Assembly (NCBI GenBank): GCA_965203275.1
Contig: OZ241865.1
Coordinates: 544,001-608,000, forward strand
Origin: Bdellovibrionales bacterium
Lineage (GTDB): Bacteria > Bdellovibrionota > Bdellovibrionia > Bdellovibrionales > JAUICD01
DNA: 64,000 bases
Reading direction: 5' to 3'
Shown: positions 1,876 through 63,800 of the stretch, piece by piece
How positions within the stretch are numbered: position 1 is the first letter of the stretch
Layout: every line of letters begins with the position of its first letter
Translations under genes and position numbers: made by a program
Notes under the pieces: generated by a model
Told to the model about the DNA's origin: nothing
Seen by the model: the letters and a program-made list of their open reading frames with translations, nothing else
Databases searched by the model: none

Positions 1876-2095
1876 TTTCACTCAAAATGCATCATGCCTC
1901 TGGCATGTTTTTGGACAATGACCGCAAAGGCTTAAGCCTTTGACAAAATGGTCATTGCCTCAAAAATCTATGCATTTTGAGTAGAGGAGGATCTCCTCAT
2001 TTCTTAACATCATGTTAAGGAAAAATTTCCTTCTGATGCCCGATGCCCGATTCCCGGATCCCGGATCCTGGGATAAACACGATGTTAAGGAAAAT
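1876..2095. repeat. Structured repeat arm (family A) plus GGATCC heptamer tail
   Basis: ctcaaaatgcat..atgcattttgag outer stem, catgcc-tct-ggcatg and caaaggc-ttaa-gcctttg hairpins, ttaacatcatgttaaggaaaa tail, ccggatc repeats. Confidence 0.9.
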
Positions 2096-2103
2096 GTCCC
2101 TTT

Positions 2104-2667
2104 CTAAGATTTTTCTATTTGTCCAAAGTCAAGTTCCACAGGTGTAGGTCTTCCAAAAATATTGACCAAGACTTTCACTGTGCCTTTTTCTTGATGGACT
2201 TCTTCCACAGTACCATTGAAATTGCTAAAAGGGCCTCCTGTCACATGCACAGACTCTCCCACTCTAAAGGACACCTTATGCCTTGGTTTTTCTACACCAA
2301 CTGTCATCTGTCTGGTGATTTTTTGCACTTCATGTTCAGGGACTGGAACTGGCTTGATGGAATCACCTTTGATAGAAGGCCCTACAAAATTTGAAACTTT
2401 CATAGAACCTTTAACCAAATGCCAAGTTTCTTCAGTTAAATGCATTTGTACAAAGATATAACCAGGGAAGAACTTTTGAGCTGTGGTTTGTTTTTGGCCT
2501 TTGACATGCTCTACGACATTTTCTGTAGGAACAAGGACCTGACCAAATTGCTTTTCAAAGCCTTTTTCTTTAATACGGCTCTCAATGGAAGCTTTTGCTT
2601 GTACTTCTGATCCTGTCTTGGTATGCACAACATACCACTTTAAATCAGGAGGGTTTGTTTGATCCAT
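2104..2667 (-). CDS. nusG: Transcription termination/antitermination factor NusG
   Basis: WYVVHT, FFPGYIFV, KOW motif GPFSNFNGTV, IFGRPTPVELDF. Confidence 0.97.
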   Translation of the reverse strand: MDQTNPPDLKWYVVHTKTGSEVQAKASIESRIKEKGFEKQFGQVLVPTENVVEHVKGQKQTTAQKFFPGYIFVQMHLTEETWHLVKGSMKVSNFVGPSIKGDSIKPVPVPEHEVQKITRQMTVGVEKPRHKVSFRVGESVHVTGGPFSNFNGTVEEVHQEKGTVKVLVNIFGRPTPVELDFGQIEKS

Positions 2668-2810
2668 TTTATGATTCCTTTATTATTTTTTTTACAATAA
2701 AGCATGTTGTTTTTTGCTTAAAATAGTCTACTTCTAATCACTTTTTAGTTTTAGTGGCAAAAGTTTACACGTCATTTGCATTTGATAAACAGAAAAACAG
2801 CAATTTATAA

Positions 2811-3191
2811 TTATAAATCAATTATATAGTTGACCACATAGCCAGAGATCAAGTCAAAAACACCAAGTAATAAACCTGAAATAAGCAACATAACAGTCAC
2901 CACAAAGGTCATGCCCATAGTGTCTTTTTGAGAAGGCCAGACCACTTTTTGAGTCTCTATAATTACTTCGTCAGCCCTTGTCACAATACGAGGGTTGAAC
3001 TGTAGCAACAAAAAGGTCACAAGCCCTGTGGCTACAGGTAAGCCATGAATCATCAAATCACCTTGGAAGTATCTAGCAAATAAAACCCAAGTCATAGAAA
3101 GGGTTTCAATAATAATGCTCATAACATAAGCAGCTATGATGGCTATGGCAACAAAACAAACAGTGATATATTTTTGATTACTACTTTCCAT
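2811..3191 (-). CDS. secE: Preprotein translocase subunit SecE
   Basis: ETQKVVWPS motif followed by a TM helix; directly upstream of nusG. Confidence 0.9.
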   Translation of the reverse strand: MESSNQKYITVCFVAIAIIAAYVMSIIIETLSMTWVLFARYFQGDLMIHGLPVATGLVTFLLLQFNPRIVTRADEVIIETQKVVWPSQKDTMGMTFVVTVMLLISGLLLGVFDLISGYVVNYIIDL

Positions 3192-3210
3192 AAAGTTCCT
3201 TCATTCGTTA

Positions 3211-3852
3211 TCACTCAAAATAAATCATGCCTCTGTTTCCCTAAAATTGAACTAGCCTCTGGCTACTTTTGGACAGTTAGCCCGACGGCTCTCGCCGTCG
3301 ATCAAAGGCTAACTGTCTCAAAAGCTTGTTCAATTTTAGGAAGGAGGATCTCTTCGTCTCTTAACACCATGTTAAGGAAAAAGTTCCTTCTTACACCTTG
3401 GGCGATGACCACGATGGCTTTCGCCTTTGACAAAATGGTCATTGCCTCAAAAGCCTGACCACTTTTAGTAGAAAGGATCCTTTCCTCTTTTAACACCATG
3501 TTAAGGGTTTGTTTCACTAAAAGTGGTCTATTTCACTCAAAGTGAACTGACCTCTGTTTCCCTAAAATTGAACTAGCCTCTGGCTACTTTTGGACAGTTA
3601 GCCCGACGGCTCTCGCCGTCGATCAAAGGCTAACTGTCTCAAAAGCTTGTTCAATTTTAGGAAGGAGGATCTCTTCGTCTCTTAACACCATGTTAAGGGT
3701 TTGTTTCACTAAAAGTAAACTAGCCTCTGGCTACTTTTGGACAATGACCGCAATGGCTTTCGCCATTGGCAAAATGGTCATTGTCTCAAAAGTCCGTTTA
3801 CTTTTAGTAGGGAGGATCTCTTTCTCTCTTAACACCATGTTAAGGAAAAAGT
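3211..3852. repeat. Cluster of family A structured repeats (about 3 complete arms plus partial arms)
   Basis: Tandem arms with different stem alleles (ctaaaattgaac, ctaaaagtaaac, ctaaaagtggtc, ctcaaagtgaac). Confidence 0.9.
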
Positions 3853-4024
3853 TCCTTTAGTTCCTATATTTTATATATATAAAGTTTTAAAAAGTCCGTC
3901 AAGAGATAATATTTCACCGTTGTCTTATCACTCAAAAGAGGTTTAAAGTTAGTTAATGAAAACATACAAAATGAAAAAATCATTAATAGAAAAACCTTCC
4001 AAAAGAAAAGCAAAACCTTCTATT

Positions 4025-5827
4025 TTATAAATAGGCATCTACGGGTAACCCAACAGACTTCATCACTTTAAGAGCATTTGTGGTTGTAGCTGCTCCTTTT
4101 TTGATCTGATAATCAAACATTAAAATATCATTTTGGGTATGATCTGTAAAATGCCAGTTTTCTAATCCTTTGATGGCTGAAGTCAATTCAATATCATGTG
4201 TTGTCACAAATCCTAAGCTTTTAGAGTTACAAAGGGCTTTGATTAAGGCCTGAGAACCTAGTAATCTTTCTCTACTGTTGGTACCTTTAAATATTTCATC
4301 GATTAAAAATAAAGAAGGCTGTTTTTTAGCTTCAGATAGCAAATTATGAATACGTACAACTTCTGAATAAAAGTAAGAGGAACCTTGCTGGAGAGAATCA
4401 GAAACCCGAATACATGTAAAGGTTTTGCCAATGAAGGTTTCAAAAGAATCAGCAAATACACTAGCTCCCATCAAAGCTAAAAGCTGATTGATACCTATAG
4501 TTCTTAGAAAAGTAGACTTGCCTGACATATTAGAACCTGTGATCAAAATGACGGGACTCTTATTAGAAATAAAAATAGAATTTTTTACTGCTTTGGATCG
4601 TTCAATCAAAGGGTGATAAGCATTTTTTGTTTTAATAGCCACATCTTTGGTAAATGTAGGAAGGGTTTTGGTTTGGAAATCATACAAAAAAACCAAAGAA
4701 ATTTGCACTTCTATTTGAGTCATAGCCTTTTTAATATCCTCATAAATACTGTTCAACTGAGATTTGGTTTTGATAAGCTTTTTGGCAAAAAAAGCATTCC
4801 AAGGTAAAAGAGAATTAATAATCACAAGCAACAGAGGGTTAGACTGTACACCCAGAAAACTAACCACACTTGAAATATTTGCAAAATACTTTTGTGGGTT
4901 ATGTTTGATGAGAGGCTGAGAGAGGTCAGACATGTCTTCTTTGTTTGCCTGAGCTATTTGATACATGCCATTAAAATAAGTCGATTGAAGTGGTAGATGT
5001 ATTTCTAGTGCTTGAGCATGAGAAAAAGCCCCTCCGTTATATTTAAGAGAAAACATAGAAAATAAAAAGAAAATTGTCCACGTGATAGCCAGGACACTTA
5101 AAGCAAAGGGGGTGCTTATAAAGCAGTACACCACCAAAGTGATGATAAAAGCTAAAAAGGCCATCCATAATCCTATTTCAAAAAGAAAAGGCCCGGAAAA
5201 GTCTTTTTTTGCTTTTAAAAGGTCTTCAAAGTCGGTTGTGTTTTCAAAAGTATTTTGTTCAGGAATTTGAGCTAATGTACGGACAAGCCACTTGATAAAT
5301 TGAGGTGTTAGCCTTTGCCATTTTTTTGTTCTAGCTTGTCTTTCAAGAATGGATTTTTGGGATAAATCTCCATTTAATAAAAGGTCTAAAAACTTTTGTT
5401 TGGAGTAATGCATGATCGTTTCATCTATCATGGTAAAGACAGACTGGGGACCTAAGAGATCAAGATCATCTGCTATGGTATTGACTTTTGCTTTTTTACG
5501 AGCATCGTTTTGATAAGTTCCTTTTTGGCGTAGGTGTTGCCGGCGATAAAATACTTGTGCATGTTCTAACTCTCGAATATGTTTTTTGAGACGTTGTGTT
5601 TTGACAACAGCATAAATAAAAGGAAAACCAAAGAGAATTAAGCTTGGCAGGCCCAAATGCCAGTCAGGGAAAAATGCTGACAACAACAAACCCAACATCA
5701 ACAAGCCAACCCATATCAATCTTATATTGAATGTTTTCTCTAGTTTATTGAGCTTTTTTTTGTAAATTTGATTTAATTTTTTATATTTTTTCCCGCAATC
5801 CATTGTCCATCCTTTTATGTATTTCAA
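4025..5827 (-). CDS. Membrane-anchored MutS-related ATPase
   Basis: TM segments N-terminally; GSNMSGKST Walker A, SYFYSE, LIDEIFKGTN and TTHD of the MutS domain V ATPase. Confidence 0.85.
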   Translation of the reverse strand: MKYIKGWTMDCGKKYKKLNQIYKKKLNKLEKTFNIRLIWVGLLMLGLLLSAFFPDWHLGLPSLILFGFPFIYAVVKTQRLKKHIRELEHAQVFYRRQHLRQKGTYQNDARKKAKVNTIADDLDLLGPQSVFTMIDETIMHYSKQKFLDLLLNGDLSQKSILERQARTKKWQRLTPQFIKWLVRTLAQIPEQNTFENTTDFEDLLKAKKDFSGPFLFEIGLWMAFLAFIITLVVYCFISTPFALSVLAITWTIFFLFSMFSLKYNGGAFSHAQALEIHLPLQSTYFNGMYQIAQANKEDMSDLSQPLIKHNPQKYFANISSVVSFLGVQSNPLLLVIINSLLPWNAFFAKKLIKTKSQLNSIYEDIKKAMTQIEVQISLVFLYDFQTKTLPTFTKDVAIKTKNAYHPLIERSKAVKNSIFISNKSPVILITGSNMSGKSTFLRTIGINQLLALMGASVFADSFETFIGKTFTCIRVSDSLQQGSSYFYSEVVRIHNLLSEAKKQPSLFLIDEIFKGTNSRERLLGSQALIKALCNSKSLGFVTTHDIELTSAIKGLENWHFTDHTQNDILMFDYQIKKGAATTTNALKVMKSVGLPVDAYL

Positions 5828-5945
5828 GTATTTTGTATCCTATTATAGTGATTGTCAAAGAATTTAAAACTTTTAATGATCATCTTAAGAATTTCAAAAT
5901 CAAAACGAGGACAGTCCACTATTTCAACACAAAAGCCTGTTAAAA

Positions 5946-7058
5946 TCAAATCAAGTCAAGTAGCATACGTCTGTGAAGCTCATTTTGTATTTTTAATTGC
6001 TCTAATTGCTCTGTCGAAAGCAAGATACTGCTATTTCCATTACTGTCAAAGTGATCAGAATCAAAATCAGAAAAAAAATAAGCACCTATCCCTATAGCTA
6101 CCATAAGTGGCAGTGTCTTTTTTAAAACTTGTGTCAGACGCGTGTTAAAGGGTGGATGCGTGTGGGATGAATCCAATGTTCCTTGCAGATAAACATTTCT
6201 GAGAGTATCTCCACGTAATATACCTCTTTTATAACTGATCTCTAAATCACTTTGATATGTATGAGGTTCACGGCCAGAGTGAGAACGATTGTATGTTATC
6301 TGTACTTCTCCTAATTCTTTCACCACATTGTCACTGTGATCATATAAGCCTGGAAATTCTAAAAACTCTCTGCTTTTGCTCACTTTGATACTTTTAACAT
6401 GAGAAACATTAAAAGTCTGATCTTGCATTTGAACAGTGAAACGATCATCCTTAGGATAATAAATAATTGTGCTATGGTGAGTTGGTAATCCTATGTCTTC
6501 TATATTCCTCCAATGGGGCCTTTTATTATTTTTAGTGATGGTGATCTCTGTGCCAGCAAGGGCTTCTTTTAATTCCTCAAATGGCTTTATAATATGCGGT
6601 TGATTTATAACTGCTGGTATCTCTCCAAGGCGTCGCAATCGACCTCTATGTACAATTTGAGTATCTAAGATATTATTTGATTGTTGTAGGTGATATAGAT
6701 AATAGGCTAGGTATGCTAAACTGTAATGAACAATATTAGCTGTTTGAACTCGGTGCATATTATTGTCAAGTTGTTCAGCTTGACTTAGGGCTTTGTCTAT
6801 AGCTTCTGTTTGTTCTAAGATGAGAGCAATTTCTTCTAAGCTCATAGCTTGATATAAAGGTTTGTCTCTTTCAAAAGATGTGACTGTTTCTGTTTGTTCT
6901 TCTGTCTTATTTTCATTTGCATTTGCATTTGTATTTGCATTGCAGAACCAATTGAAAAACCAACAGTGCAACTCTGATTGATTGTCAGAACTTGCTAATA
7001 TTTTATTAGAATTCAAAATAATTAAACAAATTGTCAAAATATTTATAAAAGTCTTCAT
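5946..7058 (-). CDS. Hypothetical exported protein
   Basis: 370-aa ORF with signal-peptide-like N-terminus and a near-C-terminal hydrophobic segment; consensus promoter upstream. Confidence 0.7.
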   Translation of the reverse strand: MKTFINILTICLIILNSNKILASSDNQSELHCWFFNWFCNANTNANANENKTEEQTETVTSFERDKPLYQAMSLEEIALILEQTEAIDKALSQAEQLDNNMHRVQTANIVHYSLAYLAYYLYHLQQSNNILDTQIVHRGRLRRLGEIPAVINQPHIIKPFEELKEALAGTEITITKNNKRPHWRNIEDIGLPTHHSTIIYYPKDDRFTVQMQDQTFNVSHVKSIKVSKSREFLEFPGLYDHSDNVVKELGEVQITYNRSHSGREPHTYQSDLEISYKRGILRGDTLRNVYLQGTLDSSHTHPPFNTRLTQVLKKTLPLMVAIGIGAYFFSDFDSDHFDSNGNSSILLSTEQLEQLKIQNELHRRMLLDLI

Positions 7059-7153
7059 TATTATATTCTTTTAAGCTTACTTTTTATTGTTGTTTATTTT
7101 ACTTTTATTTATTTTACTTTAAAGTCCTTTATTTCCCTTTAAAATCAATAACT

Positions 7154-8110: not shown

Positions 8111-8480
8111 TTTCACTCAAAATGCATCATGCCTCTGGCATGTTTTTGGGCAATCAGCCCGACGGCTCACGCCGTCGATCAAAGGCTGATTGCCTCAAAA
8201 ATCTATGCATTTTGAGTAGAGGAGGATCCCTTCGTTTTTTAACAAGATGTTAAGGAAAAAGAGTTTTATTTTTTGAATAAAAAAAGATAAGCCCTTGAAG
8301 GCTTATCTTTTTTTTTCGTTCAAATGGGTTCACTGTTTCACTGTTTCACTAAAAGTGGTCTAGCCTCTGGCCACTTTCTGGCGATGACCACGATGGCTTT
8401 CGCCATCGATAAAATGGTCATCGCCCAAAAGCAACCAGAGGTTGGTTTACTTTTAGTGAAACAACTCATTTTGAGTGAAA
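8111..8480. repeat. Family A repeat arms flanking a terminator
   Basis: Complete arm 8111-8262; second arm from about 8345 plus inverted partial ends. Confidence 0.85.
8279..8316. terminator. Bidirectional rho-independent terminator
   Basis: aaaaaaagataagcc-cttgaa-ggcttatcttttttttt. Confidence 0.8.
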
Positions 8481-8869: not shown

Positions 8870-9470
8870 ATTTCACTCAAAATGCATCATGCCTCTGGCA
8901 TGTTTTTGGGCAATGACCGCAACGGCTTTCGCCATTGACAAAATAGTCATTGCCTCAAAAATCTATGCATTTTGAGTAGGGCGAATCTCCTTGCTTCTTG
9001 ACACCATGTTAGGGAAACAAGACATGCTTCTAAAATTTTTTGGAGAGCAAGCGGGTTGCAATAAAGGAACTTTTTCCTTAACATGATGTAAAGAGACGAG
9101 AAGATTCTTCCTACTCAAAGTGAACAGGCTTTCTAGGCGATGACCATTTTATCGATGGCGAAAGCCATCGTGGTCATCGCCAGAAAGTGACCAGAGGTCA
9201 GTTCACTTTGAGTGAAATGACGGCATTGCTCTTTTTAGACAGCGTAAGCTGTCAGAGCAAACGTCAGAAGGAAATCTTTTTCCTTAACATTGTGTTAAGA
9301 AATGAGGACATCCTCCTTCCTAAAATTGAACAGGCTTTTGAGACAGTTAGCCTTTGATCGACGGCGAGAGCCGTCGGGCTAACTGTCCAAAAGTAGCCAG
9401 AGGCTAGTTCAATTTTAGGGAAACAGAGGCATGATTTATTTTGAGTGAAACAAACCACTTTTAGTGAAAC
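8870..9470. repeat. Family A inverted doublet (8870-9217) plus further arms
   Basis: Forward arm, gagcaagcggg spacer, reverse arm; another reverse arm about 9280-9425. Confidence 0.9.
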
Positions 9471-10774: not shown

Positions 10775-11125
10775 GTTGTTTCACTCAAAATGAGCCACAT
10801 CGCTGGTGTGTTTTTGGGCATTGCTCTGACAGCTTATGCTGTCTAAAAAGAGCAATGCCGTTGGCTCACTAAAAGTGGTCTGGCCTCTGGCCACTTTCTG
10901 GCGATGACCACGACGGCTCACGCCGTCGATAAAATGGTCATCACCTAGAAAGCCTGACCACTTTTAGTAGAGAGGATCTCCTCGTTTTTTAACACGATGT
11001 TAAGGAAACAAAATGCCTTTTCTGCCTGATGCCCTCAAAAGCCTGTTCAATTTTAGGAAGGAGGATCTCTTCGTTTCTTAACACCATGTTAAGGAAACAA
11101 GAAGTTCACTCCCGGGATCCCGGAT
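10762..11125. repeat. Family A repeat cluster
   Basis: Arms with ctcaaaatgagc and ctaaaagtggtc stems; heptamer remnant at the end. Confidence 0.85.
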
Positions 11126-14024: not shown

Positions 14025-14790
14025 GTTTCACTAAAAGTAAACTGACCTCTGTTTCCCTAAAATTGAACTAGCCTCTGGCTACTTTCTGGCAATGACCGCG
14101 TTTGTCTCACTAAAAATAAACCAGCCTCTGGCTGTTTTTGGGCAATCAGCCCGACGGCTCTCGCCGTCGATCAAAGGCTGATTGCCTCAAAAATCCGTTT
14201 ATTTTTAGTAGGAAGAATCCTCTTGTCTCTTTACACGATGTTAAGGAAACAAGATGTTTATTTCCCATTGACAAAATGGTCATTGCCTAGAAAGCTTGTT
14301 CAATTTTAGGAAGGAGGATCTCTTCCTTTTTTAACATGATGTTAAGGAAAAAGATTTCCTTCTGATGCCGGCTTGCCCGATTGCCGGATCCCAGATCCCG
14401 GAATGAACACTATGTTAAGGAAAAAGTTCCTTCCATGACCTATTATGCACAGATTACAAACGATTGCAAACGAAAACAACCCACATTGTAAAGGTTATAG
14501 AGTACTTTGTAAATTTTACATGGTTTTTTTCACTCAAAGTGAACTGGCCTCTGGCCACTTTTGGACAATGACCGCAAAGGCTTTCGCCTTTGACAAAATG
14601 GTCATTGTCTCAAAAGCCTGTTCACTTTGAGTAGGGAGGATCTCTTCGTTTCTTAACACAATGTTAAGGAAAAAGTTCATTCTTACACCTTTTGGCTGTC
14701 GCCGTCGATCAAAGGCTAACTGCCTCAAAAGCCTGTTCAATTTTAGGAAGGAGGATCTCCTCGTCTCTTTACAGCATGTTAAGGAAACAA
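14025..14790. repeat. Family A repeat cluster with nested arm and heptamer tail
   Basis: Outer stem cctaaaattgaac (14056) / gttcaattttagg (about 14298) encloses a complete inner arm. Confidence 0.88.
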
Positions 14791-22406: not shown

Positions 22407-22763
22407 AATCTCTGGGATCCCGGGATCTGGGATCCGGGATCCTGGGATCCGGCAATCAGGCAACCCGGCATCAGATCCCGGGGTGAAATAAACAGCTTGT
22501 TTCCTTAACATGTAGTTAAGAAAGGAGGATATCCTCCCCTACTCAAAATGAGCAGTTTTTTGCGGCATTGCTCTTTTTAGACAGCGTAAGCTGTCAGAGC
22601 AATGCCCAAAAACACACCAGAGGTGTGGCTCATTTTGAGTGAAACAACTAACTCCCTACTAAAAGTAAACGGACTTTTGAGACATTGCTCTTTTTGGACA
22701 GCGTAAGCTGTCAGAGCAATGTCCAAAAGTAGCCAGAGGCTAGTTTACTTTTAGTGAAAAACA

Positions 22764-22865: not shown

Positions 22866-23211
22866 ATTCAAATTTGATTTTTCCTGGGATCTGGGATCCG
22901 GGATCTGGCAACCCGGCATCAGATCCCGGGGTGAAATAAACAGCTTGTTTCCTTAACATGTAGTTAAGAAAGGAGGATATCCTCCCCTACTCAAAATGAG
23001 CAGTTTTTTGCGGCATTGCTCTTTTTAGACAGCGTAAGCTGTCAGAGCAATGCCCAAAAACACACCAGAGGTGTGGCTCATTTTGAGTGAAACAACTAAC
23101 TCCCTACTAAAAGTAAACGGACTTTTGAGACATTGCTCTTTTTGGACAGCGTAAGCTGTCAGAGCAATGTCCAAAAGTAGCCAGAGGCTAGTTTACTTTT
23201 AGTGAAAAACA

Positions 23212-23313: not shown

Positions 23314-24184
23314 ATTCAAATTTGATTTTTCCTGGGATCTGGGATCCGGGATCTGGCAACCCGGCATCAGATCACAGAAATGAACTTTTTCCTTAACATG
23401 AAGTAAAAAAATGAAGGGATCCTCCTTACTCAAAGTGAACAGGCTTTCTAGGTTGCCAGCATTTGAGAAGGCGATAGCCTTCGGCTGGCAACCAGAAAGT
23501 GGCCAGAGGCCAGTTCACTTTGAGTGAACCAACTAACTCCCTACTAAAAGTAAACGGACTTTTGAGGTAGCCAGCCTTTGATCGACGGCGGTAGCCGTCG
23601 GGCTGGCTACCCAAAAGTGACCAGAGGTCAGTTTACTTTTAGTGCAGATCAAATGAGGCAATGACCATTTTGCCAATGGCGAAAGCCATTGCGGTCATCG
23701 CCCAGGGTGTAAGAAGGAACTTTTTCCTTAACATGGGGTTTATCCGGGATCCGGGATCCGGCCACTGGCAACCCGGCAGGAGTGAAGCGAAAATCTTGTT
23801 TCCTTAACATTTCACTCAAAATGAGCCACACCGCTGGTGTGTTTTTTGGTGTTGCCTGCAAAGGCTTTCGCCTTTGACAAAATAGGCAACACCTAAAAAA
23901 TCCGCTCATTTTGAGTAGAGGAGGATCCTTTTATTCCTTTACAACATGTTAAGGAAAAAGTGTTTTTATTGTCTTAGGAGCAAGCGGGCTACGATAAAGA
24001 AACTTTTTCCTTAACATGGTGTTAAGAAATGAGGACATCCTTCTTCCTAAAATTGAACAAGCTTTCTAGGCAATGACCATTTTGCCAATGGCGAAAGCCA
24101 TTGCGGTCATTGCCAGAAAGTAGCCAGAGGCTAGTTCAATTTTAGGGAAACAGAGGCTAGACCACTTTTAGTGAACCAGAAGTG

Positions 24185-24954: not shown

Positions 24955-25728
24955 TCCGGGATCTGGGATCCGGGGGCTGGGATCCGGGACCTGGGATCCG
25001 GGGGCTGGGATCCGGGAACCGGGATCTGGGGGCTTGGGATCTGGGATCTGGCAACCCGGCAGACAGGCAAGGAAAAATCGTGTTAAGAGACAAAAGGATT
25101 ATCCCTAACCCCACCCACCACCCTTCAATTCTGCTTTTCCATTTGTATATTTTTTATGAGTGGAATGCGGGGTCAGGCTTCCGAAGTCCTCAATTTTTTT
25201 CACTCAAAATGAACTGGCCTCTGGCCACTTTCTGGTTGCCAGCCGAAGGCTATCGCCTTCTCAAATGCTGACAACCTAGAAAGCTTGTTCATTTTGAGTA
25301 GAGAAGGATCTCCTTGCTTCTGACACCATGTTAGGGAAAAAGTGCTTTTATTACATTAAAAGCAAGCGGGTTTACGAATGAAGTTACGAATGAAGTTCTT
25401 TTTCCTTAACATTGTGTTAAGAAATGAGGAGATCCTCCTTCCTAAAATTGAACAAGCTTTTGAGACAGTTAGCCTTTGATCGACGGCGAGAGCCGTCGGG
25501 CTAACTGTCCAAAAGTAGCCAGCAGTGATAAAGGAGCTTTTTCCTTAACATGGTGTTAAAAGAGGAAAGGATCCTTCCTACTCAAAGTGAACAGGCTTTC
25601 TAGGCGATGACCATTTTACCGATGGCGAAAGCCATCGTGGTCATCGCCAGAAAGTGGCCAGAGGCCAGTTCACTTTGAGTGAAACAGAGGCTAGTTCAAT
25701 TTTAGGGAACCAGACCACTTTTAGTGAA
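24955..25728. repeat. Heptamer array, family B fragment and family A doublet with nested arm
   Basis: (GGGATCY)n at 24955-25060; arms 25199-25728. Confidence 0.9.
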
Positions 25729-28506: not shown

Positions 28507-29279
28507 TCAACATCTCACTAAAAATAAACCAGCCTCTGGCTACTTTTGGGCATTGGCTCACTAAAAGTGGTCTAGCCTCTGGCTACTTTCTGGCAATGAC
28601 CGCAATGGCTTTCGCCATTGGCAAAATGGTCATTGCCTAGAAAGCTTGACCACTTTTAGTAGGGAGGATCCCTTCGTCCCTTAACTCCATGTTAAGGAGT
28701 TGTTTCACTAAAAGTGGTCTAGCCTCTGGCTACTTTCTGGCGATGACCACGATGGCTTTCGCCATCGATAAAATGTTCATCGCCTAGAAAGCCTGACCAC
28801 TTTTAGTAGGAGGATCCTTTCCTCTTTTAACATCATGTTAAGGAAACAAAATGCTTTCAAAATTATATTAAAAGAGCAATGCCTCAAAAATCCGTTTATT
28901 TTTAGTAGGAAGAATCCTTTTGTCTCTTTACACGATGTTAAGGAAACAGTTCCTTCTGATCCCGGGTTGCCGGTTGCCGGATCCCGGATCCCGGATTGAC
29001 ACGATGTTAAGGAAACAGTTCTTTCTTACACCTTTTGGCTGTCGCCGTCGATCAAAGGCTGAGTTGTTTCACTCAAAGTGAACTGACCTCTGGTCACTTT
29101 TGGACAATGACCGCAAAGGCTTTCGCCTTTGACAAAATGGTCATTGTCTCAAAAGCCTGTTCACTTTGAGTAGAGAGGATCCTTTTTTCTCTTAACACCA
29201 TGTTAAGGAAAAAGAGTTCTTTCTGATCCCGGGTTGCCGGATGCCAGATCCCGGATCCCGGAAAAGATCAAATTTGACT

Positions 29280-29699
29280 TTAAGTATTTTTACACAGTTT
29301 GTATAAATAAGCTCCTAATTGATCAGCTTGTTTTGTTTCACTAAAAGTGGTCTAGCCTCTGGCTACTTTCTGGCGATGACCACGATGGCTTTTGCCATCG
29401 ATAAAATGGTCATCGCCTAGAAAGCCTGACCACTTTTAGTAGAAAGGATCTCTTCGTTTTTTAACACCATGTTAAGGAAAAAGAGTTTCATTGAGATTTC
29501 TTAGAGAGCCAAGACTAATATAATAAAATTTCCTACGATCTTTTGCTGTAGGTTTAGCAGATCCTTCAGCTAAGTTAAGTACAATACTTGAAACAGCCCT
29601 TCGAAATTGACTTCTATGAGGCTCTTTCAGATGTAATTTTTTAGAGTTACGATAAAACTGAGTAGCTAATTGATAAGTTTTGAATTTTTGCATCGTCAT
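29280..29699 (-). pseudogene. Four-helix-bundle protein (23S rRNA IVS-protein / bAvd-like family) interrupted by a family A arm
   Basis: N-part QFRRAVSSIVLNLAEGSAK..DRRKFYYISLGSLR; arm at 29335-29488; C-part KQADQLGAYLYKLCKNT* at 29333-29280. Confidence 0.8.
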
Positions 29700-29763: not shown

Positions 29764-30413
29764 TATTACGATCAATGCTTTAGGACCTGATGCCAGATTG
29801 TTTCACTAAAAGTGGTCTAGCCTCTGGCATGTTTTCTGGCAGTTAGCCCGACGGCTCTTGCCGTCGATCAAAGGCTGAGTTGTTTCACTCAAAGTGAACT
29901 GACCTCTGGTCACTTTTGGACAATGACCGCAAAGGCTTTCGCCTTTGACAAAATGGTCATTGTCTCAAAAGCCTGTTCACTTTGAGTAGAGAGGATCCTT
30001 TTTTCTCTTAACACCATGTTAAGGAAAAAGAGTTCTTTCTGATCCCTGACTGCCGGATCCCGGGTTGTTTCACTAAAAGTGGTCTAGCCTCTGGCTACTT
30101 TCTGGCGATGACCACGATGGCTTTCGCCATCGATAAAATGGTCATCGCCTAGAAAGCCTGACCACTTTTAGTAATGAGGATCTCTTCGTCTCTTGACCAC
30201 ATGTTAAGGAAACAAAATGCCTTTTCTGCCTGATGCCGGGTTGCCGGATCCCAGATCCCGGAGGGAAAATCAAATCAAAAATCAACTCACAAACCATGTA
30301 AATTATTCATATAAACCCTTGCAAAGAACATATTTTTTACAAACGTGTTTTTCTACTTGACATCGTGTTCTTCTTGCTTGCTATAAAGAAGCAAATATAG
30401 TATAGCCTTCCTT

Positions 30414-32554: not shown

Positions 32555-32972
32555 CCGGGATCTGGGATCCGGCAACCCGGCATCAGATGAAACTCTTTTT
32601 CCTTAACATTTCACTAAAAGTGGTCTAGCCTCTGGCTACTTTCTGGCAATGACCGCAATGGCTTTCGCCATTGGCAAAATGGTCATTGCCTAGAAAGCTT
32701 GACCACTTTTAGTAGAGAAGGATCCCTTTATTCCTTTACAGCATGTTAAGGAAAAATTCTTTTATTGCCTCAAGAGCAAGCGACTTACGATAAAGGAACT
32801 TTTTCCTTAACATCGTGTTAAAAAATGAGGACATCCTCCTTCCTAAAATTGAACAAGCTTTTGAGACAGTTAGCCTTTGATCGACGGCGAGAGCCGTCGT
32901 GCTAACTGTCCAAAAGTAGCCAGAGGCTAGTTCAATTTTAGGGAAACAGAGGTTGGTTTACTTTTAGTGAGC
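32555..32972. repeat. Heptamer tail plus family A inverted doublet
   Basis: Forward arm from 32609, gagcaagc spacer at 32774, reverse arm to 32947. Confidence 0.9.
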
Positions 32973-36161: not shown

Positions 36162-36301
36162 TTTCACTAAAAGTGGTCAGACAGCAAGCTTCTCTGAAGC
36201 TTGCCATGTAACAACACTAGGCAATGACCATTTTGCCAATGGCGAAAGCCATTGCGGTCATTGCCAGAAAGTAGCCAGAGGCTAGACCACTTTTAGTGAA
36301 A
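36162..36301. repeat. Partial family A arms
   Basis: ttcactaaaagtggtc ... ggcgaaagcc ... gaccacttttagtgaaa. Confidence 0.8.
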
Positions 36302-38382: not shown

Positions 38383-38907
38383 TTTCACTCAAAGTGAACT
38401 GGCCTCTGGCCACTTTCTGGCGATGACCACGATGGCTTTCGCCATTGACAAAATGGTCATTGCCTAGAAAGCCTGTTCACTTTGAGTAGGAAGGATCCTT
38501 TCCTCTTTTAACACCATGTTAAGGAAAAAGTTCTTTCTTACACCTTTTGGCCCGACGGCTTACGCCGTCGATAAAATGGTCATTGCCTCAAAAATCTATG
38601 CATTTTGAGTAGGGCGAATCTCCTTGCTTCTTGACACCATGTTAAGGAAAAATTCTTTTATTGTCTCAAGAGCAAGCAGTTTGCGAATAAAACTCTGTTT
38701 CCTTAACATGTAGTTAAGAGACGAGAGGATCCTTCCTACTAAAAGTAAACGGATTTTTGAGGTATTGCTCTTTTTGGACAGCGTAAGCTGTCAGAGCAAT
38801 GCCCAAAAACAGCCAGAGGCTGGTTTATTTTTAGTGAAAAAGATAAGAAGGCGAATAGCCTTCGGCTGGCAACCCAAAAGTGACCAGAGGCTAGTTTACT
38901 TTTAGTG
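38383..38907. repeat. Family A cluster with inverted doublet
   Basis: Forward arms, gagcaagc spacer at 38670, reverse arms ending in the dppA stop codon. Confidence 0.9.
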
Positions 38908-40596
38908 TAATAACACGTAAGTAAAAACATTTGTATTGCCAATAAGTGATATCTTATAACCAACTACATTTTTCCTCTTTGCAACATAAATAGTGGAATA
39001 TGCTATGGGTATCCATGGGACTTCCTCATTAAAAATCACCTGAGCTTTTTGATAGAGTTGAATCCTATCCTGACGATTCATTATACGTCTTGCCTGAGAT
39101 ACTAGCCGATCAAAAACAGGATGACACCAAAAAGCACGTGTTGCCCCTGTCTTAATAGCATGACAACTCAAGAGAGAATATAAAAAATCATCAGGGTCTC
39201 CATTATCAGCACTCCAGCCTAGTTGCATTAAAGAATGTTCTCCTTGATTGGTTTTTGCAAGATAAGTAGGCCACTTATAAGAGACCAGCTTGACCTGAAT
39301 GCCTATTTGAGCTAAGTCAAACTGCATCATCTCTGCTAATTTTTTACCCGATGGTAAATAAGGTCTTGATATAGGTAAAACCCAAAGATCCGTTTTAAAC
39401 CCCTTCGCAAATCCTGCTTTCTTTATTAAAGATTTTGCTTTCTGCACATTGTGATCATAACTTTTCACCTGATGATGATAGCTCCAAATTGTAGGAGGGA
39501 TAGGATTATAAGCTTTTTGAGCATGACCTAAATAAACAGATTGAATGTAAGCCTCTTTATCCAAAGCATAATGCACTGCTTGACGTACAAGCTTGTTATC
39601 AAAAGGAGGCTTTTGAGTATTAATAGCTAAAAAAGCAATATTCATACCTTCTGCTTTGACAAGATCTAAGTTTTTATCTTTTTTAATGGCATTTAAATCC
39701 TCTGGAGCAGGCACAGCTATTAACTGACATTCATTGGCTTTTAGCTTTTGAAAACGAATAGAAGCATCAGGTGTGATAGAAAAAATAAGATTTTGTATAT
39801 TACCTCTTTGGCTATCAAAGTAATCAGGGAAAGCCTCATATTGAATCAAATGATCTTTTTTATACTGTTTAAAAACAAAAGGACCTGTACCAATAGGCTG
39901 ACGATCAAACATCTTTAGAGTTTTAGCTTGCAACATTTGATCTGCATACTCCTTAGAAAAGATACTTGTAAAAGGCATTGTCAAATTGCTTAAAAATGGA
40001 GCGTTGGGTCTTGAGAGAATAAATTTTACTTTGTAATTATCTATCTTAATAATATCCTTAATAACAGACTTCATATCCATATTGTGAAAAAATTTATAAA
40101 GACCACCACTGACCTTATGATAAGGATGATGTAAATCCATTTGTCTTTTAAAGCTAAAGATCACATCATCTACATTCATATTTCTAGTAGGGACAAAGTA
40201 AGATGTCGCATGAAACTTCACATCTTCTCTCAGTTCAAATGTATATTCCAAGCCTTTATTGTCAATAGTCCATCTTTTAGCTAACTTAGGGATAATATTT
40301 GTTTTGCCATATTCAAAGTCAACAAGGGTGTCAAAGATAGGACGAGTGGCCTCAAAACTAGCATCGTCTATTTCAAACTGTGGATTAAAACCTGATGGAC
40401 TAGCTTCAGAGCAGTAAACTAAAGTTTTTGCTTTATCTTGCAAAGCTTTACCTTGCAAAGAAGATGTGCTGTATGCCATTTGTATAGAGATCACAAGAAA
40501 AAGCAATCCCACAAGCCATTTCAAAAAAAGATTTTGTGTTTTATAATACATAATCACTTCTTGTTTCCTACATACCCACATAGTATAAAAAATCAT
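38902..40596 (-). CDS. dppA: Dipeptide ABC transporter substrate-binding protein (start possibly near 40551)
   Basis: LVYCSEASPSGFNPQ, PIGTGPF, VRQAVHYA and GWSADNGDPD. Confidence 0.88.
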   Translation of the reverse strand: MIFYTMWVCRKQEVIMYYKTQNLFLKWLVGLLFLVISIQMAYSTSSLQGKALQDKAKTLVYCSEASPSGFNPQFEIDDASFEATRPIFDTLVDFEYGKTNIIPKLAKRWTIDNKGLEYTFELREDVKFHATSYFVPTRNMNVDDVIFSFKRQMDLHHPYHKVSGGLYKFFHNMDMKSVIKDIIKIDNYKVKFILSRPNAPFLSNLTMPFTSIFSKEYADQMLQAKTLKMFDRQPIGTGPFVFKQYKKDHLIQYEAFPDYFDSQRGNIQNLIFSITPDASIRFQKLKANECQLIAVPAPEDLNAIKKDKNLDLVKAEGMNIAFLAINTQKPPFDNKLVRQAVHYALDKEAYIQSVYLGHAQKAYNPIPPTIWSYHHQVKSYDHNVQKAKSLIKKAGFAKGFKTDLWVLPISRPYLPSGKKLAEMMQFDLAQIGIQVKLVSYKWPTYLAKTNQGEHSLMQLGWSADNGDPDDFLYSLLSCHAIKTGATRAFWCHPVFDRLVSQARRIMNRQDRIQLYQKAQVIFNEEVPWIPIAYSTIYVAKRKNVVGYKISLIGNTNVFTYVLLH

Positions 40597-60600: not shown

Positions 60601-61865
60601 TCCATAATAATATTTTTGTAATTAGAGCCATCTGTATTACACGAAGTTTGTTTGCGTGAACTCAGCAGTAAGTCCTTATTATGACCATTTTTAAGGGAGG
60701 TGACTTCTACACTGACAGGAGTCTGATTCCCTTCTACAAGCATTCTAGTTTGATGAGAAAATCTTTGCATTGCATTGCAAGAATAACTCTGGCTTTCTTT
60801 TTCATATTTTAACTTAACTGTCACCTGAAATCCTAAGTCAGGATTACCTATGGTACTTAAACCTGAATTACTGCTTTTGATTCTATTTTTAAAAGCTATA
60901 CTTGGATTCTGTGATAGAGAAAGCCTAGGGTGAGTCAGTATTAACTTATGCGTCGGGTGAGTAGATGAATGTGGACAAGTCACAGGTGTTGATACAAACT
61001 CACTGCCGACATACTTTGTCTCTTTACATTCAATATTTGCATAACTCTCTATGACTTTTTGGTTTTTAAGATCAACAGGATTAATCCTAATGTAGAATTT
61101 TACGTTTTGAAGATTGTACTTTTTAAGATAGTCCTTCCATAAAGAAGCTATCCTTCCATCACTTGTTGTGGTGCTACTGGTAATGGTAAAGTCTTTACCT
61201 TTTTCGTCTTCGTCCTGTTCCTCTTCATCAAAAAATTCATGGTCAGAGTTATATAAAAATTGTAGAAAATTAACAGCATTCAGCAACAAGACAGATGTAC
61301 CTGTTTGAACAGAAGAACCAGCATTTACTTTCACCAAATCCACTCCTGTATTGATAAATTGAGATGGAGGGTTGCTATTGATTAATTCTCTGTATAATTT
61401 TGTATACAGCGTTGGAGTATTTAAGCTAGTACCTGAACTGATATCTTGGATTTGATATTCAGCTGGATTTGTGCTGGCAATTTGAGTGCCTTTTTTAATA
61501 AGCAGTGGATTATAATCATAGCCAGCTTTGTATCCATAAAGACGAGTCCCTAATGAGACCACCCTATCTAAACCTGATTGGGCAATGCTTTGACAATCTG
61601 AATCTTGTGCAGATGAACGCATCACTGTTTGACTTTGTGTGAAGTAATATGCTGTGCCTACACTGATTAAGGCAAGCATGGTCATCACAATCAACATCTC
61701 TACTAAGCCCATTCCTAGCTCTGGCTGTTTGCATTTTTTAAAATGATTTTTTTTAAGACAATGAAAACCTGGACTTAAGGGGGGGGGGGGGGGGGGTAGG
61801 CTAATTGCGTTATGCAATTTTTTTGCAGAAGTGTTTGTACAAATATTTGTACAAATGAAAAACAA
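57654..61865 (-). CDS. Giant Cys-rich protein with prepilin-like N-terminal motif
   Basis: G|MGLVEMLIVMTMLALISVG resembles a type IV prepilin cleavage/methylation site; many Cys modules; Pro/Asp linkers; C18 tract near the start. Confidence 0.7.
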   Translation of the reverse strand: MFFICTNICTNTSAKKLHNAISLPPPPPPLSPGFHCLKKNHFKKCKQPELGMGLVEMLIVMTMLALISVGTAYYFTQSQTVMRSSAQDSDCQSIAQSGLDRVVSLGTRLYGYKAGYDYNPLLIKKGTQIASTNPAEYQIQDISSGTSLNTPTLYTKLYRELINSNPPSQFINTGVDLVKVNAGSSVQTGTSVLLLNAVNFLQFLYNSDHEFFDEEEQDEDEKGKDFTITSSTTTSDGRIASLWKDYLKKYNLQNVKFYIRINPVDLKNQKVIESYANIECKETKYVGSEFVSTPVTCPHSSTHPTHKLILTHPRLSLSQNPSIAFKNRIKSSNSGLSTIGNPDLGFQVTVKLKYEKESQSYSCNAMQRFSHQTRMLVEGNQTPVSVEVTSLKNGHNKDLLLSSRKQTSCNTDGSNYKNIIMDLKFPQSRSKEFGTVLLCRGIRGCLSGDSTAAYSGTSCTFTRGPWQKCHQVKFPGQPGSTSSTFLDSSGNDIKLRLKFNSLPSNRRYELEVIEASQLGVTNPRQIVNSRFYIDSKRPTSTVALNSDEDDVGSISDGVKGRNYSGPNTRWKLPFTRVSHSGRSLNVLYITGIQCNQNNVSFTGKVTDQFTHNLEPCTKSGRRRDGSGTTNTSSSISMTIDRTTSPPVCKGTLSGIQHGRQTVTTIPKDVCGSGSGNPLVWDTDLPSTFAAQNFPNSTYWFKNSDKTQYTINTIVPTNSTAGKFPKHYSVDCHQSQCVRTRKDGNGSPIECNLTAPGSSNEHDGCNPRYVGVKYYHICGGTSSVKPTQWSVFVPHPTTPILGLGDGHSCKYVKCESHLACCDRNAGTCNGVNNEQCGVPNTRHCTNPKGGRQTRNDETLSSCPPLGLNKCEYLLPCKGKSQTPTQRTRTDYNPSRCRGKRAGSGDANKCSFNREAICKNNYMSGTHAKSTIENDKGKYYLTDNNETIGKSCDVEASCATKWRLDSTDGPSDDCQYTDALGVKHKYKCRLKDGVPNEWQSSEPESTRASSGVCENIPGSQHVRWVLKVNQDETKCRAKRKTLSVPFKGHCQPYTSGGCTKNKRRKIDNDSQQRCRLRPACGYTPTPDPIPDPNATPDPNATPDPNEPNPHGACSKRRGGCTGSYCAESVGCHDSNRYNCHVKDVGGRCYPSCGYSCNLMMERLGNSLWSNNGRSCRLGHGPLDSNPDPSKGLIATSYDTKCEDLDRYGTGPGGWKDVVPPGLTKRDIWELQVNSGRHCCYRTSLPSQNVNPPADPDPPSNPQSPACNNAQEDACHRGTLRPVADTATEYKWSCVLGGTSVSCAKAKPNRPETCTGTGQYNDESSCTSVSGNDTCKQQNGCWVRGDPVPGQCGSTCGACTVGRRNSSPACMEDGPHTWRCEWTCHGQNRGRINCSVPHLPSNECNE

Positions 61866-62026
61866 AACCGAACTAAATAAATAATTTTTTTGTATATATA
61901 AATCATAACTGAACCCTTAAACTTATTATAAACGACTTATCGACAATTCAACGAAAAAAGTAAAAAATATATAATTTTTTTAAGATTTTGTATCAATATA
62001 ATACACATCGACTGTGAAATACCCAG

Positions 62027-63800
62027 AATCCGGGATCCGGGATCCGGGATCCGGGATCTGGGATCTGGGATCCGGGATCTGGGATCTGGGATCTGGGATC
62101 CGGGATCCGGCATCAGTTCCCGGTATGCCAGATTGCCGGATCCCAGATCCCGGATCATGGGAGTGAATATAAAGTCTTGTTTCCTTAACATGGTGTTAAA
62201 AAATGAGGACATCCTCCTTCCTAAAATTGAACAAGCTTTTGAGGCAGTTAGCCTTTGATCGACGGCGGTAGCCGTCGGGCTAACTGCCCAAAAGTAGCCA
62301 GAGGCTAGTTCAATTTTAGGGAAACAGAGGTCAGACCACTTTTAGTGAAACAAATCCTTCAGTCTCCCACTGCCCCATCCTCTCCCTAATTATTTTTTGT
62401 TTGATGGTTACGCAGAATCTAAAAAAAATAAAAAAACAAAAAAAAAGAACTTTTTCCCTAACATGGTGTTAAGAGAAAAAAGGATCCTTCCCTACTCAAA
62501 ATAAATGGATTTTCTAGGCAGTTAGCCTTTGATCAACGGCGATAAGCCGTTGGGCTAACTGCCAGAAAACATGCCAGAGGCATGATGCATTTTGAGTGAA
62601 ACAAACCCTTAACATGGTGTTAAAAAATGAGGAGATCCTCCCTACTAAAAGTGGTCAGGCTTTCTAGGTTGCCAGCATTTGAGAAGGCGATAGCCTTCGG
62701 CTGGCAACCAGAAAGTGACCAGAGGTCAGACCACTTTTAGTGAAACAAATCCTTCAGTCTCCCACTGCCCCATCCTCTCCCTAATTATTTTTTGTTTGAT
62801 GGTTACGCAGAATCTAAAAAAAATAAAAAAACAAAAAAAAAGAACTTTTTCCCTAACATGGTGTTAAGAGAAAAAAGGATCCTTCCCTACTCAAAATAAA
62901 TGGATTTTCTAGGCAGTTAGCCTTTGATCAACGGCGATAAGCCGTTGGGCTAACTGCCAGAAAACATGCCAGAGGCATGATGCATTTTGAGTGAAACAAA
63001 CCCTTAACATGGTGTTAAAAAATGAGGAGATCCTCCCTACTAAAAGTGGTCAGGCTTTCTAGGTTGCCAGCATTTGAGAAGGCGATAGCCTTCGGCTGGC
63101 AACCAGAAAGTGACCAGAGGTCAGACCACTTTTAGTGAAACAAATCCTTCAGTCTCCCACTGCCCCATCCTCTCCCTAATTATTTTTTGTTTGATGGTTA
63201 CGCAGAATCTAAAAAAAATAAAAAAACAAAAAAAAAGAACTTTTTCCCTAACATGGTGTTAAGAGAAAAAAGGATCCTTCCCTACTCAAAATAAATGGAT
63301 TTTCTAGGCAGTTAGCCTTTGATCAACGGCGATAAGCCGTTGGGCTAACTGCCAGAAAACATGCCAGAGGCATGATGCATTTTGAGTGAAACAAACCCTT
63401 AACATGTTGTTAAAAAACGAGGAGATCCTTCCCTACTAAAAGTGGTCAGGCTTTCTAGGTTGCCAGCATTTGAGAAGGCGATAGCCTTCGGCTGGCAACC
63501 AGAAAGTGACCAGAGGTCAGACCACTTTTAGTGAAACAGAGGCCAGTTCACTTTGAGTGAACGAGAGCCTTCGGCTGGCAACCAGAAAGTGACCAGAGGT
63601 CAGACCACTTTTAGTGAAACAGCTTAGCCTTTGATCGACGGCGGTAGCCGTCGGGCTAACTGCCAGAAAACATGCCAGAGGCATGATGCATTTTGAGTGA
63701 AAAAAAATGAGGACTTCGGAAGCCTGCACCCGCATTCCACTCATATAACAAAAATGAAAAAGCAGAATCGAAGGGCGGGGGGTGGGGTTAGGGATTATCC
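62027..63800. repeat. Heptamer array plus family A/B cluster with a 395-bp unit tandemly triplicated
   Basis: (GGGATCY) about x11 at 62027-62110; tttagtgaaacaaatcc at 62341, 62736 and 63131. Confidence 0.92.

Follow-up and report, generated by a model that had tools for sequence, protein, structure and literature searches.

What is the short folded repeat that crowds the intergenic DNA of an uncultured, Bdellovibrio-like member of the Bdellovibrionales, and what could have spread it? We addressed this question from a 64,000-nucleotide (nt) stretch, the window (G000:C1:544001-608000), of genome G000, a single contig of 2,567,810 bp with 35.1% G+C. A reading of the sequence alone had described here an abundant element of about 145 bp that conserves structure and not sequence, and had taken it for a folded single-stranded DNA (ssDNA) or RNA, spread as a non-autonomous mobile element. 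The explanation that we favour, with moderate confidence, is that these are non-autonomous mobile DNA repeats, a family confined to one lineage, which insert into older copies of themselves.

Abundance, fold and pairing of the repeat

An nhmmer profile of the repeat unit, made from 399 distinct copies, matched 56 complete or partial copies in the window, from position 1876 to 63702, which cover 6,863 bases (10.7%). The range of 1876..63700 first assigned to the element therefore nearly spans the window, but elements occupy only about one-tenth of it. Genome-wide, the profile gave 1,363 matches (157,273 bases, 6.1%), divided between the + strand (668) and the − strand (695), which bears out the claim of abundance. 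Model position 1 is the start of 701 of these matches and position 145 the end of 934. A head-to-tail regular expression recovered 605 full units with a modal length of 145 nt (218 copies) and a second length class of approximately 171 nt, in which a full unit stands behind a head fragment of 26 nt. The 3′ motif TGTTAAGGAAA, allowing at most one mismatch, occurs 43 times in the window against 3.75 expected and a maximum of 9 in 100 shuffles, and its exact form occurs 989 times in the whole genome. Only 4,247 of 152,613 repeat bases (2.8%) fall within crude gene calls based on open reading frames (ORFs); because these calls span 77% of the genome and hold so few repeat bases, the repeats make up about one-quarter of the non-coding DNA. 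The unit is seldom solitary: among 473 complete copies, representing 416 distinct sequences, the left flank is free of repeated 11-mers in 5 and the right flank in 2.

The unit consists of 145 nt, divided into a 105-nt body and a 40-nt tail, and a trailer of approximately 11–17 nt. RNAalifold applied to 30 window copies folded the body into a three-way junction that is closed by stem P1 and carries a short P5 hairpin and a long P2-P3-P4 arm. Read from 5′ to 3′, the layout is head TTTC, P1, P5 hairpin (TCT loop), P2, P3, P4 hairpin, A-rich bulge, P3′, P2′, P1′, AGGAGGATC and TTAACAnnnTGTTAAGGAAA, and this arrangement, already drawn in the sequence-only reading, matches the results of both RNAalifold and ssDNA folding. 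Folded as ssDNA, three copies reached z-scores between −9.7 and −12.3, whichever strand was used. The tail is conserved in sequence; it includes a small palindrome centred on GATC and has ATGTTAAGGAAA at its end.

Pairing in the body is preserved while the paired bases change. In the 30 window copies, both sides change in 29 of the 51 predicted pairs, compensatory changes are seen in 26 of 41 body pairs, and 98.4% of body cells are paired compared with 81.5% in 500 shuffles, none of which reached the observed value; sliding the partners by 1–3 columns reduced pairing to 27–43%. Across the 399 distinct copies, 14,817 of 15,158 body cells are Watson–Crick (97.8%), the remainder being 79 G·T, 140 A·C and 122 other mismatches, and most paired positions hold two or three pair types. 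We also aligned 36 copies across lineages, 14 from the window and 22 from loci of genomes G001 and G004, and obtained the same fold with new alleles, with body helices 93–97.5% paired and 32 of 42 body pairs compensatory. The terminal hairpin in this alignment has an invariant 3′ arm, ATGTTAAGGAAA, a drifting 5′ arm and no compensatory changes. What is conserved is therefore the fold in the body and the sequence at the end, and compensatory changes within the genome and across lineages support the conservation of structure in place of sequence.

The stems exist in many alleles: 23 for P1, 11 for P5, 25 for P3 and 12 for P4 in the genome. All seven P1 alleles listed initially were recovered, in 23 to 77 copies each, as were the listed P5, P3 and P4 alleles. 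The stems do interchange, with about half of the possible allele pairs observed, but the reassortment into many combinations is more constrained than first described, as neighbouring stems are linked (normalised mutual information of 0.64 for P3-P4, 0.62 for P2-P3 and 0.61 for P1-P2). Distant stems are less linked (0.17 for P5-P4) and the tail is nearly unlinked (0.09–0.25).

Evidence for movement and nesting, and distribution of the family

Copies identical to their very ends were found in different surroundings. One 145-mer is present as 8 identical copies in 6 distinct contexts and another as 7 identical copies in at least 3. Identity among the 8 copies ends exactly at TTTC and GGAAA, and the left flank is CTCTG in six of them, TCTG after sequence not recognised as part of an element in one and CTCTT in one. 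These exact-ended copies, with the matching halves of split copies described below, support the earlier description of a non-autonomous mobile element.

Pieces separated by at most 70 nt form 693 junctions, of which 164 join a tail to a head (median gap 15) and 263 a tail to a 5′-truncated copy, giving 427 in the same orientation; 138 join a 3′-truncated copy to a head, 72 are inverted tail-to-tail junctions (gap of about 48), 2 are head-to-head and 5 link truncated copies to each other. At nearly every junction, one of the two partners contributes a complete head or tail end, as expected if whole units fall into older units. A stack parse assembled 101 pairs of left and right halves, broken at model positions 20–29 (the P5 loop) in 59, and P1 of one half matched P1′ of the other (at most one mismatch) in 46 of the 101, compared with 96 of 505 pairings with random P1 alleles; near-contiguous pairs matched in 36 of 63. 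Head fragments of 26 nt number 162 in the genome.

The nested arrangement is clean at 25401-25710 (−). There the older copy runs from 25710 to 25685 and ends in ...TAGCCTCTG, the younger copy occupies 25684-25540 and is followed by its trailer, and the older copy resumes at CTGGCTAC... and continues to its own tail at 25401. The left half (25685..25710, −; model 1-26) ends in CCTCTG, and its P1 pairs with P1′ in the right half (25401..25524, −; model 22-145), so that the complete younger copy (25540..25684, −) lies inside the P5 loop of the older one. The trailer (25525..25539, −) stands past GGAAA of the inserted copy and continues as ...CACTG CTGGCTAC into the older copy. Just upstream of this nest, a third copy is cut after ...GGTCTG.

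Heads follow a preferred word. Upstream of the 701 heads, G occupies position −1 in 58%, T position −2 in 76%, T or C position −3 in 82% and T position −4 in 61%. The heads are preceded by TTG in 207 cases and CTG in 183, together 390 (56%), whereas these words have genome frequencies of 2.4% and 1.2% (together approximately 3.5%). CTCTG stands directly before 83 of the 473 complete copies, and the P5 loop CCTCTG is invariant. No target duplication was detected for 3-, 4- or 5-mers at offsets 0–35 past GGAAA. Apart from an 11-nt inverted tail copy at the head of a minority of copies, the two ends have only TTTC...GAAA in common.

We propose that the unit would be copied or moved as a folded single DNA strand, that a protein would read its invariant 3′ end and loops, and that it would land 3′ of a short T-Y-T-G word without target duplication. 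As every copy carries this word in its invariant P5 loop (CCTCTG), new copies would accumulate in old ones, and such self-targeting would yield nested, head-to-tail and truncated mosaics. Recombination among the approximately 1,300 copies would reshuffle whole hairpin modules, and onward spread would be limited to copies whose arms still pair, a form of selection acting on the element itself that could explain why pairing is near-perfect despite sequence differences.

Several observations weigh against this proposal. Just 57 of the 473 complete copies exactly duplicate the sequence of a copy listed before them, indicating that most of the family is old. The copies share kinship, so that the covariation counts reflect non-independent events, and arm-to-arm correction of a palindrome could provide a route to pairing without selection. 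The usual hairpin-handling enzymes were not found by a Pfam search of the genome. A simple nested model with a fixed look-ahead of 200 nt found a matching P1′ for 21 of 83 nested heads compared with 12 of 83 by chance, and this weak excess led us to use the stack parse instead. Most copies lack clean ends and carry a variable trailer behind GGAAA. GC skew is flat and scrambled and gave no basis for the comparison of replichores that could have supported a single-stranded intermediate. Finally, 82 of the 701 heads are preceded by ACA, where the ...ACA of an inverted tail copy abuts the head (for example, at window positions 23799-23820 and 32598-32620), which fits a transposon with terminal inverted repeats.

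The family is narrowly distributed. The tail pattern (at most one mismatch) has 718 occurrences in G000, 232 in G001 of the same genus and 8 in G004, whereas each of the 38 other relatives has 0 or 1. A covariance model gave matches in 3 of 101 genomes of the order, namely G000, G001 and G004, in a scan that scored 31 candidates per genome and whose numbers are not copy counts. In G004 the elements lie on contig C11 (locus L006), where three of them stand between rpsQ and rplN in the order rplP-rpmC-rpsQ-elements-rplN; the sequence is 90% identical to G001 and 78% to G000. A second rplP of G004, on contig C14, resembles that of G003. Given the 90% identity to G001 and the second rplP, C11 is most likely a mis-binned contig of a third member of the genus, and we withdrew the notion that the element occurs in two genera. 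We read the family as restricted to one genus-level lineage. In a genome collection, 22 of 36 loci lie on one chromosome with match positions agreeing with G001; the other 14, together with 50 metagenome loci, gave one chance match each, and the covariance model found 0 elements in these 64. A plasmid collection gave 0 matches, and a full-text literature search on motif strings returned no bacterial report among the matches listed. With Rfam also empty (see below), the family remains, as at first, one that matches no described repeat in these sources.

Several smaller observations concern the related loci. Two elements at L006 are duplicated in tandem with the last ~25 nt of rpsQ. A sub-family of approximately 159 nt in G001 and G004 loci (L031 1501-1659, L063 401-559) carries a 14-nt P5-loop insert, CCTCT-CGAGGCGAG-CCTCTGG, which repeats CCTCT; situated at the nesting site, the insert may represent a footprint or else an additional mini-hairpin. 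When nusG-secE and the region upstream of secE are compared between G000 and G001, the genes align at 65–78% and the spacers do not; the array upstream of secE begins directly after ...CCATAAAGTT, common to both genomes. The nusG-secE spacer of G001 (L123 1413-1500) has the usual head and P1 clamp (TTTCACTCAAAATGGAC...GTCCATTTTGAGTA) around an unrelated interior, without the TGTTAAGGAAA tail, and the same spacer is empty in G000. Related sequence is also contained in runs labelled as sponge metagenomes. Contigs from four public runs placed on window positions 1-20000 stop at repeats, the joints listed for them are cross-repeat chimeras with short sides of 21–31 nt, and neither empty sites nor element ends were obtained from them. 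At 6% of the genome and about one-quarter of intergenic DNA, such repeats disrupt short-read assembly, and binning too may go astray because of them, as the G004 contig illustrates.

Candidate movers and competing explanations

The statement that the window holds no mobilising enzyme stands at the Pfam level for the 37 scanned ORFs out of 52 of at least 100 amino acids (aa), and the window genes are ordinary, encoding GTP cyclohydrolase I, SmpB, NusG, SecE, a MutS-like protein, thioredoxin and others. Across G000, the search for Y1 HUH transposases (RAYT, PF01797) gave 0 matches with 6 candidates scored and a control positive in 6 of 14 named genomes; that for Y2 HUH enzymes also gave 0, but its control was silent in every genome too. 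Reverse transcriptase (PF00078) had 0 candidates in G000 and 3 matches in G001. A whole-genome Pfam search gave 0 matches to IS110 and 0 to rve, and the sole match to TnpB (PF07282) is a zinc-ribbon inside a 1,365-aa ORF. Two tyrosine recombinase (PF00589) genes are present in the genome.

Resident insertion sequences (IS) comprise an IS256-like element with 9 ORFs, 6 of them intact (411 aa) in identical copies at G000:C1:432252-433487 and five other places, with ends GAGCATGTCC and 8-bp duplications, and an IS4-like element with three copies and ends CCTGAGTTTGACAGTTG; no resident IS has the same ends as the repeat. In one case an IS256-like copy, with the duplication GACGGCTC, interrupts the P4 stem of a repeat, indicating that the repeats are older than the IS burst. 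Among the gene families with several copies are ankyrin proteins (33), two Rpn-type PD-(D/E)XK families (26 and 24; NCBIfam TIGR01784), resolvases (7), a 703-aa helix-turn-helix repeat protein (12) and several families without a Pfam match. PF12784 occurs in 3 of 3 element-holding genomes, one of them doubtful, but also in 4 of the order's 98 other genomes, and G022 has 14 copies without the element; we regard the link as a weak lead only. Rpn-type nucleases were set aside as movers, having a weak phyletic link and flanks without constant arrangement, and so was a five-copy 171-aa family considered as a transposase, which belongs to a paralogous gene cluster. A search for an autonomous copy, in which a split element cleanly encloses a gene, returned only arrays, a 146-bp tandem repeat and chance pairs. 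The tandem repeat, of ~146 bp in approximately nine copies, lies between the halves of a split element at G000:C1 ~467100-468480.

A less likely reading, which we offer tentatively, is that the repeat is a REPIN-like persistent replicator whose mover lies outside HUH Y1/Y2, reverse transcriptase, IS110 and integron integrase. Such a mover might be an unrecognised protein family shared by the genus, or host replication or repair acting on the three-way-junction fold; the fold would bring its own landing site in the P5 loop CCTCTG, and the family would multiply by self-nesting. We consider it unlikely that the repeats have ceased to transpose or never used a dedicated enzyme, and that they spread through gene conversion, duplication of segments and switching of templates at hairpins, with Rpn nucleases perhaps helping, or that they are protein-binding or DNA-structuring sites kept by the host, like REP/BIME. 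The empty transposase searches agree with that explanation, as do the tandem arrays with periods of 395 and 448 bp, the reassorting modules, breakpoints at helix borders, the 162 head fragments of 26 nt, which would be false starts, and the two expanded Rpn families (26 and 24 ORFs) with the phyletic pattern of PF12784. However, the identical exact-ended copies share only CTCTG on their left, one of them having TCTG after sequence not recognised as part of an element; G022 combines 14 PF12784 genes, and G003 abundant PF04754, with absence of the element; and of the three genomes with elements, one probably owes them to faulty binning. Moreover, Rpn proteins are described, in the parts of the literature consulted, as recombination-promoting nucleases and toxin-antitoxin defence genes, not as transposases.

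An ordinary double-stranded transposable element of the miniature inverted-repeat type (MITE), moved by DDE cut-and-paste through terminal inverted repeats TTTCCTTAACA and TGTTAAGGAAA, its fold a by-product of an arm-corrected palindrome, would account for the heads that abut an inverted tail copy, and the active IS256-like element, with 6 intact copies and 8-bp duplications, shows that DDE elements are at work in the genome. Trailers able to pair with AAGGAA, which are imperfect inverted tail copies, follow a tail in 87 of 91 cases for AAGTTCCTTCTTACAC, 43 of 49 for AAGATTTCCTTCTGAC and 26 of 30 for ACATCCTTCTAATA. Yet a target duplication is absent at every offset tested, the left repeat is missing at 88% of heads, the IS256-like and IS4-like ends are unrelated to those of the repeat, the rve gene was not found in the genome, and five helices with 97.8% Watson–Crick pairing across dozens of alleles are left unexplained, which makes this a rather improbable account. 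We judge it very unlikely that the family is a multiplied functional RNA element (a small RNA, mRNA stabiliser, terminator or riboregulator) under selection for its RNA fold. The covariation does resemble that of structured RNAs, the tail holds an AGGAGG word and an ATG, the predicted + strand tail helices contain many G·U pairs, and operon-internal copies, such as those between rpsQ and rplN at L006, are necessarily transcribed. But AGGAGG lies ~19 nt from the ATG, too distant for a ribosome-binding site, and the G·U-bearing tail helices show no compensatory change. Complete copies in co-directional gene gaps number 164 sense and 203 antisense, with 152 in convergent and 187 in divergent gaps; the body holds fewer G·T than A·C cells; and approximately 1,300 copies, many truncated or nested, are unlike genes. 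Rfam gave 0 matches at the gathering score in the window, and at E values up to 1 the best matches in 28500-30300 were noise (16–24 bits against thresholds of 40–150). No RNA data set was listed for window positions 1-10000, an outcome without bearing on expression. As to the initial alternative of ssDNA or RNA, the unit folds equally well on both strands; given this, the lack of orientation bias, G·T no more frequent than A·C, identical copies with exact ends and split hosts, and 56% of heads behind TTG or CTG without target duplication, the sequence evidence leans towards mobile DNA rather than an RNA gene.

IS200/IS605 elements transpose as ssDNA, a process marked by a strand bias, have subterminal hairpins and insert 3′ of a fixed tetra- or pentanucleotide without duplication. 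Like miniatures of such elements, the repeat appears to land just 3′ of T-Y-T-G, shows no detected target duplication, has hairpins at or near its ends and carries its own target word, which permits tandem and nested copies; unlike them, it has a body fold far bigger than the IS end hairpins, and TnpA and TnpB genes were not found in the genome. Integron attC sites are recombined as folded single strands, conserve structure and not sequence, and are marked by GTTRRRY and RYYYAAC boxes. The repeat follows the same structural principle and has a short conserved end core, in which GTTAAGG and CCTTAAC resemble these boxes, but it is dispersed on both strands (668 +, 695 −) in all types of gene gap rather than in integrase-adjacent one-way arrays, and the genome has just the two tyrosine recombinase genes. 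BOX of pneumococcus, ERIC of enterobacteria and the Rickettsia palindromic elements (RPE) are modular, strongly folding repeats of ~100–150 nt, without their own transposase, that are common in host-associated bacteria. By general description rather than by sequence, in which no kinship would be expected, the repeat is like them in size, modularity, folding and freedom from a transposase; we know of no report, for these families, of insertion into a hairpin loop of the same family or of such a degree of covariation.

The REP/BIME/REPIN repeats with RAYT (Y1 HUH) transposases (PMC3116915, PMC3337134, PMC3333891, PMC2817692) share with our family hundreds of intergenic palindromic copies, mosaics with set linkers, pairing kept as sequence varies, apparent inheritance within a single lineage, and inverted doublets, here the 72 tail-to-tail junctions with their ~48-nt spacer. 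REP units are hairpins of about 20–40 nt, typically in inverted doublets with a spacer, whereas the present unit has 145 nt with 41–51 pairs in 4–6 helices around a three-way junction; its head-to-tail and nested junctions (427 of 693) outnumber inverted doublets (72 of 693), and a Y1 transposase gene was not found in the genome. IS1397, ISPpu9 and other IS that target REP hairpins likewise use the hairpin of an intergenic repeat as a landing site (PMC1525189, PMC12288879), but here the incomer is gene-free and comes from the same repeat family. In behaviour the repeat is closest to REP/BIME/REPIN and to single-strand transposition of the IS200/IS605 type, with a much more elaborate anatomy, and it fails the enzyme test that defines these systems and integron attC sites. 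It appears to form a new family of selfish repeats between genes, one of unusually elaborate build. Small structured repeats are common in bacteria, and in most of their families neither what moves them nor why they fold is understood. Approximately 1,300 copies in a closed chromosome, with dozens of stem alleles, near-perfect pairing, an invariant end, a built-in landing site and none of the usual enzymes found, make an unusually rich natural experiment; should the mover come to light, it might belong to a novel type of DNA enzyme that reads structure.

Copies and other features of the window

Positions of elements in the window are those of nhmmer matches unless stated otherwise. The first complete element (1876..2023, +; model 1-145), defined also by sequence and neighbouring genes, lies between smpB and nusG. 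It is followed by a 'B' module recognised from sequence (2024..2093, +), which comprises the trailer AATTTCCTTCTG, a GGATCC-rich run and a second TGTTAAGGAAA. Next stand a complete element (3236..3380, +) behind a head fragment of 26 nt that ends in CCTCTG, a 5′-truncated copy behind trailer AAGTTCCTTCTTACAC (3398..3506, +; model 34-142), an element whose tail is cut at TGTTAAGG (3557..3698, +; model 1-142) and two further complete elements (3704..3848, +; 8111..8258, +). A tail-less body (8344..8461; model 1-105) was matched on both strands. Two complete elements then face each other tail-to-tail (8871..9017, +; 9073..9217, −), and another is nested behind a head fragment (9279..9423, −).

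On either side of 11137-13992, two clusters on the + strand have the same make-up of a 3′-truncated copy (10779..10859, model 1-82; 14052..14100, model 1-49), an element lacking two head positions (10866..11008 and 14107..14249, both model 3-145) and a 5′-truncated copy (11027..11097, model 75-145; 14265..14350, model 60-145). The second cluster continues with a 'B' module (14351..14423, +), the complete element with the top score of the window, which was also folded as ssDNA (14528..14672, +), and a 5′-truncated copy (14693..14787, +; model 51-145).

At 22440-23340 a 448-bp tandem duplication of two periods holds, on the − strand, a complete element (22500..22644) and a tail-less copy (22652..22759; model 1-111), repeated as 22948..23092 and 23100..23207 (model 1-111). 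Behind them on the − strand follow an element (23388..23528; model 2-145), a tail-less copy (23537..23644; model 4-111), an internal fragment (23654..23704; model 35-85) and a 'B' module (23723..23798). A complete element whose head abuts the inverted tail copy TTTCCTTAACA (23810..23957, +) is separated by a 48-nt spacer (23958..24005) from its tail-to-tail partner (24006..24150, −), and one more complete element (25198..25339, +) precedes the nest at 25401-25710.

The + strand of 28515-30212 carries a head fragment (28515..28555; model 3-43), an element (28558..28698; model 3-143), a complete element (28703..28846), a 5′-truncated copy (28868..28946; model 67-145), a 'B' module (28947..29015), two complete elements (29067..29211; 29336..29480), a 3′-truncated copy (29801..29878; model 1-77) and two complete elements (29883..30027; 30068..30212). 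Farther on, a complete element with its head behind TTTCCTTAACA (32609..32754, +) lies tail-to-tail with another (32802..32946, −), and a 3′-truncated copy (36218..36301, −; model 1-84) precedes a group made up of a complete element (38383..38527, +), a 5′-truncated copy (38548..38650, +; model 43-145), a complete element (38698..38839, −) and a 3′-truncated copy (38847..38909, −; model 2-64).

The last copies are all on the − strand: a complete element nested behind a head fragment (62180..62324), three tandem 395-bp periods (62453..63536) with two elements in each (62453-62601 and 62607-62745; 62848-62996 and 63002-63140; 63243-63391 and 63397-63536), and two 3′-truncated copies within 63562..63702 (63562-63619, model 1-59; 63624-63702, model 1-77). 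Each period of the 395-bp and 448-bp duplications consists of two elements plus unique DNA, which points to an origin by unequal recombination and not by transposition.

Two associated modules recur. The 'B' module, a second repeat module behind a tail, starts with CAAGAT... or AAGATTTCCTTCTG, contains heptamers of the GGATCCC/CCGGGTTGCC type and has its own terminal TGTTAAGGAAA; GGATCC occurs 1,223 times in the genome compared with approximately 259 expected from base composition. The tail-to-tail spacer is conserved at ~47–55 nt with the form ..TTTATTG.CTCAAGAGCAAGC..CGATAAAG.. and is found in the window at 9018-9072, 23958-24005, 32755-32801 and 38651-38697.

Among the genes between the repeats, a two-gene cassette at 11137-13992 (−) encodes a 316–336-aa protein with a faint ankyrin match and a 556-aa protein that in the window is split into 344 and 171 aa. 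The cassette has 6–7 copies in the genome, belongs to no Pfam or NCBIfam family and has a contig depth ~4–7 times that of unique DNA. The 703-aa protein at 30414-32525 (+) carries many weak Tc3-type helix-turn-helix repeats, and its family of 12 members matches 30 places in G000 and, weakly, G001. A helical apolipoprotein-like family of 150–190 aa is represented by five tandem paralogues and two more at 41874-45044 (−) and 50220-51573 (+), out of 31 members in the genome. Eukaryote-like repeat proteins at 27271-28506 and 45412-48891, namely ankyrin-repeat paralogues, 33 of them genome-wide, and a 1,159-aa RCC1-repeat protein, are in keeping with a host-associated lifestyle.

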